This document shows, piece by piece, positions 5,106 to 57,354 of a stretch of 64,000 nt of DNA. The stretch's first letter is position 1. The number at the start of each line of letters is the position of its first letter. The position numbers and the translations under genes were made by a program. The notes under the pieces are model-generated. The model saw only the letters and a list, made by a program, of their open reading frames with translations. It had not been told where the DNA came from and searched no databases. Source of the stretch: a virus (lineage: Duplodnaviria; Caudoviricetes); the IMG/VR virus record IMGVR_UViG_3300021399_000099, positions 1-64,000 of that record. One strand, given 5' to 3'.

Positions 5106-7742
5106 ATGACACAGAACGAAAATTACACAAACGAGCTGAACAGGCTTCTTAATTTTATGGAAAATACTCTTGGCAGGGAAATGCCCACTCCGGTGCTGAC
5201 CCTTGAGTATTTTATTCTTGCCATTCTGGACCAGAAAGATTCAACAGTTTATAAAATTATTGACGACTGCTGTTCGAATATGGCAAAAAACCGCATCTAT
5301 ACAACCTACCGCCAAATACTGCAGGGAAGGGCTCTCAGTGCGATTAAACCGAACCGAGAGATTAAATATGATGCAAAACTCACGGAAACAATAGCCGCTT
5401 CGAACACTGAAAGGGAAATGCTCGGTGCTGAAAAACTTGGTAGCGAGCATATCTTACTTCATATCCTTGCTGATGATTCCAAGGATAACAGCATTAGAAA
5501 AGTGTTTAACGGTGCCGGTTTATCATATTCAATCCTTCTTGAGAAAATCAGCTCCAATGCAAAATTGGTGAGTCAGTTAGAAAATTCAAAGAAACCCCAA
5601 AATCCCAAGCCGAACTCCATTATGGGTATGGACATTGGAGCGGAAGGCGGTGATTCAACAGTAAAAATTATCAATACCCCTGGCGGTCCGGTAATTCTTA
5701 AATCGGGCATTTTTACCGGTAATCCAGCGGATGCACAGCAGGAGTTCTTGAAAATGTTGGGTCTTGAGGATAATCCAGCCCTAAACACCCAGAAACCCGG
5801 GAAAAAGGATAAGCAGAAGACCCAGTTCATTGACCAATACTGCACGAATCTTAACCGTCTTGCAGAAAATAGACAAATTGACAAGCTCGTCGGGCGTGAA
5901 AATGAAATCAACAATATCATAAGGACACTTGGCAGGAGGAAAAAGAACAACATCATCATCGTAGGTGGCGCCGGGGTTGGAAAAACCTGTCTTGCCGAAG
6001 GCCTTGCTTATAAGATTGTCGAGGGCACTGTACCAAAGTTCCTTAAAAACAAAAAGCTGATTTCGCTTGATATGACGGCACTTATGGCTGGTACAACCCT
6101 TCGCGGTATGTTCGAAGAGCGTGTCAAGGGTCTGCTGGACGAAATAAAGGCCTCCGGCGAATATATTCTCTTTATTGACAATATCGGCAACGTTCTCGGC
6201 AACAAGACCAAGAACGACTATGATATCGCCTCAATGCTTTCTCACTCACTTGATAATGGTGAGGTCCAGGTAATAGGCACGGCAGACTTCTCATCGTTTA
6301 GGAGTACTTTCGATAAGGATGCCAGCTTGCTTCGCAGATTCCAGAAGCTCATCATTGAGGCCCCGACAAAGGAAGGTTCAAAGGACATACTGAACGGGAT
6401 ACAGCAAAACTACGCCGATTACCATAAGGTGGTCTATACTCCGGAGGCAATCAATGCGTGTGTTGAATTGGCAGATAAGTACATTACCGAAAGGAACCTG
6501 CCAGACTCAGCAATAGACGTGATGGACGAGGCTGGTGCGGTTGTCGGTACCCAGAACGATACTGAATCACCGGAAATCATCTCACTTAGGGAAAAGATTT
6601 ACGATTATAACGCGAAGATTGAAAAACTTAAGAAAGAGGATAAATATGACGAGGCTGACGCACTTGAGAAGGAGCAGAAGCACACGGCAAATACGCTTGC
6701 AGAGTTTGTAAAACGTGAGGAGGAATACAAGAAAGAACATAGACCAGTTGTAGGCATAGAAGTTATTTACGACATAATTGCCAGCAAGACCGGTATTCCA
6801 CTGAGCAGGCTTTCCTCCGACGACAAGAAAAAGCTGACCAATATCGATGACAGACTTAAGCAGAATGTAATCGGGCAGGATGAGGCGATTGAAGTCATAT
6901 GCCGAGCATTAAAACGCAACAGAGTGGGGTTCAAAAAGAACGGATGCCAATTCTCTGGTCTTATGATTGGAAAAACAGGCGTAGGTAAAACACTCATAGC
7001 AAAGCAATTAGCAAAGGAGATGTTTGGAGACGAGGGTGCCTTAATCCGTTTCGATATGAGCGAATACCCCGACAAGACTGCGGTCAATAAGCTCATAGGC
7101 TCAAATCCCGGCTATGTTGGATATGAAGAGGGCGGACAGCTTACCGAGGCGGTTAAGAACAGGAAATATTGCGTACTTTTGCTTGATGAAATAGAAAAAG
7201 CTGACCCGGAAGTGTATAACATATTCCTTCAGGTGCTTGACGAGGGTTTCCTTACGGATAACTCGGGGCAGAAAGTCGATTTTAAGAATGTTATTGTTCT
7301 TTTCACCTCAAATGTCGGTGCTAAAGCCGCCAGCGATTTCGGGAAGGGTATAGGATTCAATGAGAACGAAGAAGAAAACCAGAAGAGGATATTGCTCAAA
7401 CAGCTTAAGAACAAGTTCCCTCCGGAATTCCTTAACAGACTTGACAATGTGATTTATTTCAACTCACTGAATGATGACGACCTGCGCAAGATTATCCGCC
7501 TTGAAATAAGCAAACTCCAGAAAAGAATGCTCGAAATAGGATATACGATGGTCTATGACGAGGGAACCGTTGATTATATCCTCGACATAGTGAAGGAAGA
7601 AAAGGAATACGGTGCAAGACCCATCGTCAGGGCAATCCAGGACGAGATTGAAGACAAGATTACCGACCTCCTCCTTGAAAACGAATATGATGAACATAAT
7701 TTCACTGTGACCGCCCAAGCCCACTCTTTGAATGTTTCTTAA
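5106..7742 (+). CDS. clpC: ClpC-type Clp/Hsp100 ATPase
   Basis: Clp N-domain; NBD1 Walker A GGAGVGKT; short M-domain; NBD2 with GKTGVGKT, GYVG and LLLDEIEKA; IGF loop; GARP motif. Confidence 0.92.
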   Translation: MTQNENYTNELNRLLNFMENTLGREMPTPVLTLEYFILAILDQKDSTVYKIIDDCCSNMAKNRIYTTYRQILQGRALSAIKPNREIKYDAKLTETIAASNTEREMLGAEKLGSEHILLHILADDSKDNSIRKVFNGAGLSYSILLEKISSNAKLVSQLENSKKPQNPKPNSIMGMDIGAEGGDSTVKIINTPGGPVILKSGIFTGNPADAQQEFLKMLGLEDNPALNTQKPGKKDKQKTQFIDQYCTNLNRLAENRQIDKLVGRENEINNIIRTLGRRKKNNIIIVGGAGVGKTCLAEGLAYKIVEGTVPKFLKNKKLISLDMTALMAGTTLRGMFEERVKGLLDEIKASGEYILFIDNIGNVLGNKTKNDYDIASMLSHSLDNGEVQVIGTADFSSFRSTFDKDASLLRRFQKLIIEAPTKEGSKDILNGIQQNYADYHKVVYTPEAINACVELADKYITERNLPDSAIDVMDEAGAVVGTQNDTESPEIISLREKIYDYNAKIEKLKKEDKYDEADALEKEQKHTANTLAEFVKREEEYKKEHRPVVGIEVIYDIIASKTGIPLSRLSSDDKKKLTNIDDRLKQNVIGQDEAIEVICRALKRNRVGFKKNGCQFSGLMIGKTGVGKTLIAKQLAKEMFGDEGALIRFDMSEYPDKTAVNKLIGSNPGYVGYEEGGQLTEAVKNRKYCVLLLDEIEKADPEVYNIFLQVLDEGFLTDNSGQKVDFKNVIVLFTSNVGAKAASDFGKGIGFNENEEENQKRILLKQLKNKFPPEFLNRLDNVIYFNSLNDDDLRKIIRLEISKLQKRMLEIGYTMVYDEGTVDYILDIVKEEKEYGARPIVRAIQDEIEDKITDLLLENEYDEHNFTVTAQAHSLNVS

Positions 7743-54305: not shown

Positions 54306-54497
54306 ATGCTAAGAGTAATTGTAAATGAAGGAGACAAAATCGACAGAGCCCTGAAGCAATTCAAACGCAAGGTGAATAACACGAAGTTGATACAACAGCT
54401 GCGTGCCCGGAAAGAGTTTGAAAAGCCCTCAGTGACTGCCAGAAAAGGAAAACTCAGGGCGGAGTACATCCAGAGACTTCGCAATGAGCAGGAATAG
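54306..54497 (+). CDS. rpsU: 30S ribosomal protein bS21 (phage-encoded)
   Basis: MLRVIVNEGDKIDRALKQFKRKV...LRARKEFEKPSV...AEYIQ, 63 aa, with a Bacteroidota-type C-terminus. Confidence 0.92.
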   Translation: MLRVIVNEGDKIDRALKQFKRKVNNTKLIQQLRARKEFEKPSVTARKGKLRAEYIQRLRNEQE

Positions 54498-54643
54498 CTC
54501 TCGAAAGATAGAGCATATTCACACAGTTTTTATTGGTTACAGAAGAGGGCCGTCGTGAGATGCCCCTCTTCAATTTTTTAACCTTTCAACACACACTTTG
54601 GCACGAGTTTTGCATATATAGTGCTGTAACCAATTTAAAACAG

Positions 54644-54881: not shown

Positions 54882-54958
54882 CGGGGTGTATCGGCTCAAG
54901 CTTATACCTTGTCGAAACCGTAGCTGGTTGCACGGGGGTTCAAATCCCTCCACCCCGA
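54882..54958 (+). tRNA. Atypical tRNA-like RNA lacking a normal D arm, anticodon TAT (Ile?)
   Basis: Perfect 7-bp acceptor CGGGGTG/CACCCCG; T arm GGGGG-TTCAAAT-CCCTC; CAAG-CTTATAC-CTTG arm; promoter at 54843-54871. Confidence 0.6.
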
Positions 54959-54979
54959 CAATATATTTAAAACTTCATT

Positions 54980-55414: not shown

Positions 55415-56027
55415 TGAAGCGTCGTCTAACGGCAAGACATGGGATTTTAGTTATTATAACTGAATGCACTGAGGGAAACCTTGGATGTAGAACCTCCCTA
55501 ATTCGGTGAAAGCTAAGTGAATGATGAAAGTAAGATTGTACGGCGGATTCCCAGAGATGGGGAACTATGAAGCAGTTCTTAATGTATGTACACTCATTTA
55601 TATGCCAATGCCGAGCCAATGTTATTCATCAATATATTATATGTCTTTGTAGGAGAGAACTGGAAAAGAATATTCCTTGCCCATTGTCGGCATAAGTTCC
55701 AGTATTGATGATAGACAGTGTGTAGAGACTATACAGGAGGAACCTAAGTTGAAATGCTTGATTACCCTACGCATGATTGACGTATAAATCCTATTATACA
55801 ACCAAATCATGAGTGAGATTAAAGAAACAACTAGTGAGTAGGATTAAAGCTAGGATGGTAATGAGCTGCTTGCAAGATTTCAATATGGTTAAGATACAGT
55901 CCAGACCACAAACAAATGAATCGACGAACGTCCTGAGGGATGTACAAGATAATCGTGGCGACATTTGGTAGTGAAAGCTATAGTGGCAAGGGTTCCCAGA
56001 ATAGAGGTTCGATTCCTCTCGCTTCAA
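55415..56027 (+). tRNA. trnQ: tRNA-Gln(TTG) interrupted by a group I intron; exons 55415-55448 and 55991-56027
   Basis: Joined exons form a full cloverleaf: TGAAGCG/CGCTTCA, GTC/GAC D stem, TGGGA-TTTT^GGT-TCCCA, AGAGG-TTCGATT-CCTCT. Confidence 0.9.
55449..55990 (+). ncRNA. Group I intron (542 nt, no endonuclease ORF)
   Basis: P1 with a U.G pair at the 5' splice site; terminal G; core elements AATTCGGTGAAA (~55500), AATGCCGAGC (~55607), GTAGAGACTA (~55722) and AAGATACAGTCC (55891). Confidence 0.88.
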
Positions 56028-56374
56028 CAAAAAAAACATTCGGACCCTTGTTTTTTTAAAAACTTGTTTGTATATTTATATAGAGAGTAAAGATTTTCCA
56101 TTTTGTTAATAAGTTTGACCGGTTAGTTTGCCAGACACGAAGACAGCTGCCAGACCACCTGTAATAGGGACTCTTTTGAGTACCTTTTTTACGCAACACA
56201 CCTCCTTTCTCGTTCTTGCAGTTGGTGCCTGACGTTGTAGATGATACGGTCAAAACAAGTTCTTTGGTATATAACATAGCCGGCTCAGCGTACGTTTTCA
56301 GTGGTATCGCGGCGGTTATGTCGAACAAGGATACGTACAGCAAGATTTTTAGTATATTGAAATTACTTAAAAAT

Positions 56375-56540
56375 CTGAGTAGCCCCACCGCGGTGATAGA
56401 CAGGCACCGTGGAATGAATGCAGGGATGGGAACTGCCGTCTTTACTACCGGTTACCTGGGAGACGTTAATAACCAGGTGCCCGTATCCTGTATTACCAGA
56501 GTGTTTAAAGAGGATGGCCACAACGGTCGTCCTCTTTTTT
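56375..56540 (+). ncRNA. Candidate structured non-coding RNA with terminator
   Basis: Several stems (CCGCGGTG/CACCGTGG; TGCAGGGATGGG/CCCGTATCCTGTA; ACCTGG/CCAGGT), then AGAGGATGGCC/GGTCGTCCTCT-TTTT. Confidence 0.4.
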
Positions 56541-56592
56541 GTTTATATCCGGTTTTTTCTGTATATTTATAGTGTATAGAATATATCATATT

Positions 56593-57354
56593 ATGAAAAC
56601 ATATGGACCGAAACTAATAGTGAATGAATGGCGTGACCGTAACGGGGAATTAAAACGCGAAGAGCATAACGTGATGCCTCTGTCTGAGTCGTCCCTGAAC
56701 CAGATGATGCAGCACGGTGAAACCGGTATGGTTATCATCTCGGCGAACAGGAGTGCTATCGACTCAGAGAACCCGAAACTGTCCCTGAGGCCTGATTTTG
56801 AAAAATATGTAGAAAGCGTCGGGGGCTATGATTCCATCGACTCAGATGCATTGTACGACGAGGAGCAGAACTGGCTTAAGCGTCGTAATGCCAAGGCTGA
56901 CAAGATACTTCGCCGGGATATAAAGAATGCCGGCTTCTCTTACTCTCCAGTATATGGGGGCTATCACGGTACCGACGGCGTAGCAGACAGCTATGAGCCC
57001 AGTTATGTCGTATATTGTTACAACAGGGACGGCGAGCTCGTGAAGTTTGATTATCTAGAAGAGTTCGCTCTTGAAATGTGCAGGAAGTTTAAACAGGACA
57101 GCGTATATGTGCAGCGTCCTGGTGACCCTCCTGTATATCTGGACGGCGCCGGCAACCAGGTGAATTCAACGTCTTCAGACAACTTCAAGTTCAACAGAGA
57201 GAAGGAACAGTTCTACACCACAGCAAAGAGGGATAAGTCCAATCCACAACGCTTCACAGCGGACATTGTCTTTGAGAATATGTTTATCCCTCTGAGACCG
57301 GCGGATTACAATGAGAAACTCCGGAGGATAAAATCAGGGGAATACATACTGTAA
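56593..57354 (+). CDS. Hypothetical protein (DUF3293-like fold possible)
   Basis: IISANRS...GFSYSPVYGGY...EPSYVV...KFKQDSV; TATTTAT at 56564. Confidence 0.8.
   Translation: MKTYGPKLIVNEWRDRNGELKREEHNVMPLSESSLNQMMQHGETGMVIISANRSAIDSENPKLSLRPDFEKYVESVGGYDSIDSDALYDEEQNWLKRRNAKADKILRRDIKNAGFSYSPVYGGYHGTDGVADSYEPSYVVYCYNRDGELVKFDYLEEFALEMCRKFKQDSVYVQRPGDPPVYLDGAGNQVNSTSSDNFKFNREKEQFYTTAKRDKSNPQRFTADIVFENMFIPLRPADYNEKLRRIKSGEYIL

Follow-up and report, generated by a model that had tools for sequence, protein, structure and literature searches.

A group I intron of bacterial tRNA-intron type inside the anticodon of a phage tRNA-Gln(UUG) gene, and its relatives in the tRNA genes of viral contigs

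The DNA considered here (the window) comprises the initial 64 kb of an IMG/VR virus record (G000) of 216,910 bp, estimated to be 61% complete, which derives from a large gut phage, probably of the rumen; RNA contigs matching the intron described below come from animal gut metatranscriptomes. The window carries a tRNA-Gln(UUG) gene that is split inside the anticodon, in the following setting:
54309-54497: gene for ribosomal protein bS21 (PF01165), flanking the split tRNA-Gln locus
54599-54614, plus strand: sigma54-type -24/-12 promoter-like motif, about 800 nt before the split tRNA-Gln
55415-55448, plus strand: 5' exon of tRNA-Gln(UUG), tRNA positions 1-35, ending at U35 with the letters TGGGATTTT
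55449-55990, plus strand: group I intron of 542 nt without an ORF, starting with A and ending with omega-G at 55990
55991-56027, plus strand: 3' exon of tRNA-Gln, from G36 to the discriminator A73, starting with the letters GGTTCCCA; CCA is not encoded
56593-57354: gene for an S-adenosylmethionine lyase family protein (PF23780), flanking the split tRNA-Gln locus

The bS21 gene lies about 1 kb upstream of the split tRNA-Gln, and from it we infer Bacteroidota as the host of the phage. The split gene starts 18 nt downstream of a 138-codon ORF, and a search with this 138-aa ORF returned no related loci. The genome contains 42 copies of the sigma54-type motif, compared with 0-1 in 20 shuffles, and the copy at 54599 is the likely start, judging from the motif, of the transcript that carries the split tRNA-Gln. 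About 105 kb away, at 162-183 kb of G000, lies a tRNA array of 47 tRNAs (ARAGORN) and one tmRNA, which includes a CUA suppressor, Gln(CUG) and a second, uninterrupted Gln(UUG) (G000:C1 c179684-179757), while a protein of the CCA-adding/poly(A) polymerase family (PF01743) is encoded at G000 82170-82550. Two other elements of the plus strand of the window lie close by. An 80-nt tRNA-like element (54882-54961), with normal acceptor and T arms and a rearranged middle, matches the Rfam tmRNA model over that model's tRNA-like domain with an E value of 2.4e-8, below the cut-off, and a related RNA contig is present in run X5. On the 3' side of the tRNA, a structured non-coding stretch of about 440 nt (56098-56545), preceded by the motif TATTTATA (56073), ends in a hairpin resembling a terminator (56507-56537); its 5' part is covered by near-identical RNA contigs from three runs, no match was found in Rfam or among GenBank phages, and it is a candidate for an undescribed RNA.

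When the two exons are joined, they form a flawless cloverleaf of 71 nt (-23.4 kcal/mol) whose loop reads TTTTGGT and which ARAGORN names tRNA-Gln(ttg); the first-pass annotation had described two halves 542 nt apart that rebuild such a cloverleaf, with the loop TTTT^GGT, and all of its coordinates and motifs hold. The cloverleaf, a UUG in the 7-nt loop and the U1-A72 first pair are all present, as befits a tRNA-Gln(UUG). Six registers would give a 7-nt loop, and only the one that places the intron between positions 35 and 36 (35/36) combines a U at position -1 with a G at omega. The 5' exon agrees with the intron-less orthologues L150, L151 and L018, which are identical to the spliced sequence at 66-68 of 71 positions, with compensatory differences in the acceptor stem, and which ARAGORN labels tRNA-Gln(ttg); because these orthologues match the spliced sequence, they fix both the splice site and the identity of the tRNA. 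The gene had further been expected to escape standard tRNA scans, which is true of default ARAGORN and not of ARAGORN with its intron option, by which the split gene is detected with a score of 109.8 (30 shuffled 64-kb windows gave 0 tRNAs with introns allowed). Default ARAGORN, like Rfam at its gathering threshold, found nothing within the window. In the intron-split tRNA-Gln genes of L152, L156 and L157, ARAGORN shifts the register and reports tRNA-Stop(tta), that is, false ochre-suppressor calls. The two Gln(UUG) genes of G000 differ in their first pair, the array copy having an A1.C72 mismatch and the split copy U1-A72.

The intron itself can be dissected into the following parts:
55446-55464, plus strand: P1 helix, exon UUU with the guide GAA (55462-55464) and a U55448.G55462 wobble at the splice site
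55465-55489, plus strand: P2 hairpin with a GAAA tetraloop (55475-55478); 7 of its 10 pairs show two-sided changes among 18 relatives
55493-55507, plus strand: P3 5' strand (with 55733-55740), J3/4 and P4 5' strand (with 55610-55614)
55512-55605, plus strand: P5, with a receptor-like GCUAAG/UAUGC and an extension of about 80 nt common to the tRNA-Arg(UCU) intron of L022
55616-55724, plus strand: P6/P6a, with an extension of about 85 nt absent from all relatives, and J6/7
55725-55731, plus strand: P7 5' strand (with 55898-55902), with the guanosine-binding pair G55727-C55901 and the bulged A55726
55743-55888, plus strand: P8, containing the canonical GAAA receptor of 11 nt (CCUAAG 55743-55748 / UAUGG 55884-55888)
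55889-55990, plus strand: J8/7, P7 3' strand, P9.0 (55906-55909/55983-55986) and omega-G
within 55889-55990, plus strand: P9 with a GAAA loop (55968-55981), preceded by an insert of about 53 nt

Every element of a group I intron can thus be placed: P3-P7-P8, P4-P5-P6, J6/7, J8/7, P1, P10, P2, P9.0 and P9. P1 is extended by 5 bp (55449-55453/55457-55461), and P10 forms between 55458-55461, which also serve the P1 extension, and the 3' exon at 55991-55994; P1 with its U.G at the splice site, P10 and the terminal G are as previously described, and the core elements then suggested now belong to a complete core with covariation among 18 relatives. In the alignment with these relatives, 909 of 946 cells of 53 base pairs are paired (96%), against 33-41% in controls whose partners were slid by 1-3 columns, a percentage biased upward relative to the controls by the fact that the fold was drawn from this sequence. 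In sixteen pairs both partners change (69 cells, against 8-17 such cells in the controls), among relatives that are not independent sequences; these changes fall in P2, P3 (4 of 6 pairs), P4, P5, P6a and P9, and those in P2 and P3 are stronger structural evidence than the percentage paired. The G55727-C55901 pair and A55726 are invariant in 18/18 relatives, while P7 ends in a mismatched pair, A.C, where most close relatives have A.G. The Rfam check that had been proposed came out below its threshold, RF00028 (Intron_gpI) scoring 19.5 bits over 55439-55920 (E 0.012-0.047; gathering cut-off 50), yet relatives score 31-41 bits, and on the evidence of the alignment covariation settles the group I fold. 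According to Williams 2020 (bioRxiv 10.1101/2020.01.27.920355), in which 18-20 bits are used for tRNA introns, the Rfam model has no bacterial seed, and the sub-threshold score is therefore a limit of the model and not a defining biological feature.

About 340 of the 542 nt are peripheral extension, distributed over P5, P6a, P8 and the segment before P9 (about 79, 85, 120 and 53 nt, respectively, all non-coding); the P8 extension, like that of P6a, is absent from all relatives. The coding strand has no frame open for more than 53 codons, in agreement with the earlier view that no homing endonuclease ORF is present, and neither an intron-encoded endonuclease nor, by tblastn, a remnant of one was found (best E 0.064). 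A degenerate endonuclease as the origin of the extra length was thus rejected for lack of similarity. The folding energy of the whole intron is no better than that of shuffles (z -1.29), which is expected since the RNA is pseudoknotted and AT-rich. As to subgroup, the intron displays traits of IC3, with a GNRA loop on P2, a GNRA-capped P9, the P8 and P5 receptors and neither P7.1 nor P7.2. We take the P5 receptor to be a close variant of the 11-nt GAAA receptor, and both receptors, presumably like those of classical IC3 tRNA introns, would dock the L2 and L9 loops as in the Azoarcus-type IC3 introns. IC3 introns are without P5a-d (PMC11835236); the P5 extension of about 80 nt seen here differs freely from relative to relative, without conservation of the P5abc kind.

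When compared with known systems, the closest likeness is to bacterial tRNA introns, a group that Williams 2020 extends to 21 classes. Its seed alignment, as far as available, includes four 35/36 classes (Lys.4Ug, Tyr.4Ug, Asp.4Ug and Asn.4Ug), with which the Gln intron has in common the site, the U at -1, the omega-G, a short P1 and a GAAA-capped P2, while its core motifs and its P9.0/P9 3' end are as in seeds such as Mti5.Thr.3Ug and Ncf2.Leu.3Ug. In contrast to those introns, which come from cellular genomes, it is borne by a phage, has 542 nt without an ORF and resides in a tRNA-Gln, a host that appears in none of the 26 seed names of the accessible alignment. Thus, of the proposition that a Gln host with a 35/36 site is atypical, the part concerning the host stands, Gln being probably new and apparently uncatalogued, whereas the site was already known from bacterial Lys, Tyr, Asp and Asn tRNAs. 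With the classical IC3 introns (Azoarcus tRNA-Ile2(CAU) 36/37; cyanobacterial and plastid tRNA-Leu(UAA) 34/35) it shares a compact core and GAAA loops in L2 and L9, but differs in host and site, in being about 2.5 times longer than those members that have about 200 nt, and in its four variable extensions. Group I introns at 35/36 have also reportedly been seen in tRNA-Asn/Asp of Patescibacteria.

Among phages, the introns of protein genes (T4 td, nrdB and nrdD, those of Bastillevirinae and of crAss-like phages, mostly of subgroup IA) are likewise phage-borne ribozymes, some of them with HNH homing endonucleases (PMC11878797; PMC7886860), but the Gln intron sits in a tRNA gene and has the architecture of bacterial tRNA introns. 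Hausner et al. 2014 (PMC3984707) state that the phage introns known to date were all in protein-coding genes, and no publication describing group I introns within the tRNA genes of phages turned up in an incomplete literature search. Devoto et al. 2019 (PMC6784885), in the accessible part, describe 'enigmatic' tRNA introns of Lak megaphages without assigning them to a class; these too are inserts in tRNA genes of large gut Bacteroidota phages, with alleles with and without them, but one is tRNA-shaped and, as far as that part goes, not classed as group I, whereas the Gln insert has a full group I core.

The Gln intron is not an isolated case: the tRNAs of viral contigs hold about 100 introns of this family, including another in G000. 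Patterns scanned against IMG/VR and metagenomes, together with an exon-matching script, yielded 103 distinct family introns in 18 host/site classes, of which a few singleton classes may be miscalled. The sister intron in G000 (L002, G000:C1 c166883-167409) measures 442 nt, interrupts a tRNA-Leu(UAA) at 33/34, has core blocks 92-96% identical to those of the Gln intron and reaches 31 bits with Rfam; an uninterrupted Leu(UAA) is also present in G000. Introns at Gln 35/36 were found in five orthologous tRNA genes (556, 436, 431, 600 and 476 nt) and, as a sixth other case of 311 nt, in a second tRNA-Gln lineage (L155). In the family tree six Gln-35/36 introns fall into three groups with weak support, and no order of events can be read from so poorly supported a tree; independent invasions of Gln 35/36 are accordingly not claimed, the tree fitting a single origin as well. 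Members of the clade are two to three times longer than minimal introns of about 200 nt, and non-coding, and most have no extension sequence in common. The closest relative by score, the L022 intron at 34/35 of tRNA-Arg(UCU), nevertheless matches the Gln intron at 132 of 141 nt (94%) across P3-P5-P6, extension included, with the other extensions unshared, and two further introns of different hosts share their P9 extension. The 141-nt block and the shared P9 extension therefore point to an exchange of peripheral modules between intron copies of different tRNA hosts, as far as can be judged from sequence comparison.

No syntenic copy of the Gln intron was found, as the exact 5'-junction pattern has 0 matches in IMG/VR, and GenBank phages, searched by BLASTN with the locus and with the L022 intron, gave short core matches or none. 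Two exact clade patterns had 0 matches in 185,579 GTDB genomes, a result that exact patterns do not turn into absence. A looser junction pattern retrieved 21 loci, of which the real ones are L021 and L035, both found before, and the truncated L168. The latter (6075-6420), which lies near an intact Gln(UUG), is a decayed copy with the 5' half of a tRNA-Gln and most of a 35/36 intron, having lost the 3' end of the intron and the 3' exon. L149, with a Gln-type 3' pattern, was rejected as a Gln intron since no tRNA is present; its sequence corresponds to an intron within the gene for DnaB helicase in a crAss-like phage (L160, Kolpuevirus, OQ198718), which has the same P9.0/P9 3' end and comes with a GIY endonuclease. 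Two members are in tRNAs with unusually long variable regions, namely L103, in a tRNA called UCA by the script (34/35), and L119, in a tRNA that the script calls GCA (33/34), with a PD-(D/E)XK endonuclease. A cultured representative is the Agrobacterium jumbo phage Atu_ph07 (MF403008), with a 278-nt family intron at 34/35 of tRNA-Leu(UAA) (L158 1460-1821, at about 112.9-113.25 kb of MF403008); the intron is unannotated, a hypothetical CDS is annotated across its 3' end, and the genome paper makes no mention of introns. For a Microcoleus phage, the GenBank record has an annotated 286-nt tRNA-Arg that spans such an intron.

The guides of the family follow their hosts. Among the 51 introns whose guide could be positioned, representing nine host/site classes, pairing with the own exons was found for 96% (P1) and 84% (P10) in a class-balanced count, whereas swapped exons gave 37% and 5% (permutation p 0.0006 and under 0.0002, respectively), and both P1 and P10 hold in 6/6 Gln-35/36 introns tested. 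Several relatives carry HNH genes and one carries a PD-(D/E)XK gene. The tRNA array of G000 contains two genes of interest in this context:
G000:C1 c174487-175587 (L001 14488-15588): free-standing HNH gene
G000:C1 c172470-173405: GIY-YIG gene nearby
The HNH gene is homologous to family intron endonucleases (E 1e-21 to 1e-35); it ends in T-arm-like sequence. As a homologous HNH stands in the tRNA array of the same genome, collaborative homing of the Gln intron, a process described in PMC3984707, is possible on the basis of this homology. Homing endonucleases, either carried by some members or free-standing in arrays, would bring the family to intron-less alleles; a change of host tRNA would come about through alteration of about seven guide bases, and recombination at the near-invariant core blocks would swap peripheral modules between copies.

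RNA data are available from four gut metatranscriptome runs (three studies), whose contigs match the Gln intron with 0-3 differences over 155-339 nt and span the P6a and P8 extensions that are unique to it; RNA libraries can contain DNA, and the contigs show neither strand nor ends. Contigs of relatives, none of them from the Gln intron copy, join the intron 3' end back to the 5' part in a circle-like manner, and the linker of one of them is similar to the 5' end of the introns at CAU-36/37 (L012 and L033). Back-joined joints of this kind are what circularised group I introns give. Circularisation is known for the Azoarcus intron (PMC13168695). The ligated-exon junction of the tRNA-Gln was not found among the gut metatranscriptome contigs, and the exons and flanking ORFs have no cover in RNA contigs; the lack of exon cover is compatible with an excised intron yet does not count as evidence on its own, because such libraries lose short modified tRNAs. 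In run X3, a contig with a loose end at 55986 fuses the 3' end of a relative's intron with the D-arm and the uninterrupted anticodon arm of a tRNA-Leu(UAA), and could have arisen as a chimera or by reverse splicing.

Taken together, the element is very probably a functional group I ribozyme without an ORF, of the IC3-like type known from bacterial tRNA introns, that resides as a mostly neutral passenger in tRNA-Gln(UUG). By the chemistry of group I introns, free guanosine bound in P7 would cut after U35 at the U.G wobble, whereupon P10 would align the 3' exon and U35 would attack after omega-G; the expected products are a tRNA with a UUG anticodon and a free, stable intron able to circularise, and RNase P, 3' trimming and CCA addition would complete the tRNA-Gln. 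The near-neutral status is suggested because the patchy presence, the redundant Gln(UUG) gene and the decayed relative all fit it.

Other explanations differ in whether the gene works at all and in what it makes. The view that either the intron or the tRNA no longer functions, and that the split gene is decaying but tolerated thanks to the second tRNA-Gln(UUG) (G000 c179684-179757), would agree with its location about 105 kb from the array, with the low Rfam score and with the occurrence of decay in the family, L168 lacking the 3' ends of both intron and tRNA; however, the cloverleaf is perfect and differs from its orthologues in a compensatory way, all invariant core columns are kept, near-identical intron RNA contigs exist, and it is the split gene that has the U1-A72 typical of tRNA-Gln, whereas the array copy has A1.C72, which together make this quite improbable. 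Splicing in another register, with some other tRNA as the product (for example a UUA ochre suppressor or Pro(UGG)), is extremely improbable: shifted registers with 7-nt loops do read TTA or TGG, and ARAGORN names three orthologues tRNA-Stop(tta), but TTA requires A or G at -1 and TGG requires A at omega, the intron-less orthologues have the loop TTTTGGT, the L021 intron starts with G so that the shifted register gives TTG anyway, and P1 together with P10 fixes 35/36 in all six introns tested.

The remaining alternatives accept that the intron splices. It could be kept for a benefit, by hiding the gene from rival homing endonucleases during co-infection, by timing the supply of tRNA or as a stable RNA whose large extensions serve some function, and both the size of clade introns (two to three times the minimal length of about 200 nt, with no protein coded) and the prominence of family RNA among gut metatranscriptome contigs speak in this direction, as do the HNH and GIY-YIG genes in the tRNA array; we consider this rather unlikely, given that the intron is patchily present across orthologues, that the extensions of most members are unrelated in sequence and that folding of the complete intron does not surpass that of shuffles. 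Dependence on a protein helper, be it a host chaperone or a phage factor, is suggested by the four large extensions, with about 340 of 542 nt lying in the periphery, and by the established reliance of many group I introns on helpers in vivo. It is nevertheless judged unlikely, as both tetraloop/receptor pairs that render compact IC3 ribozymes self-sufficient are, on an established-knowledge reading, present, and as the extensions occupy loops that usually tolerate whole ORFs (PMC3984707).

If the intron is indeed the working, mostly neutral ribozyme preferred here, its splicing chemistry is that of the textbook, and its significance lies elsewhere. It adds a Gln 35/36 host/site class that was not found catalogued, and the roughly 100 relatives contradict the statement of the 2014 review that phage introns are in protein genes only. 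Because standard scans (default ARAGORN, Rfam at its gathering threshold) miss such genes, the tRNA sets of phages are undercounted or miscalled. A family member in the cultured phage Atu_ph07 brings a bench test within reach, and the sister introns that a single genome has in different tRNAs, their guides following the respective hosts, are material with which the acquisition of sites can be tested; for the reverse-splicing route to new sites, direct experimental evidence was not reported as of the 2014 review (PMC3984707). More tentatively, gut jumbo phages might harbour a separate clade of enlarged tRNA introns without ORFs, which passes from one tRNA gene and loop position to another as copies exchange the short P1/P10 guide and peripheral modules at near-invariant core blocks, and which spreads by means of the free-standing HNH endonucleases of the tRNA array. 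If true, this would be a natural and testable route by which group I introns reach new sites, with Gln 35/36 as one of its new products.
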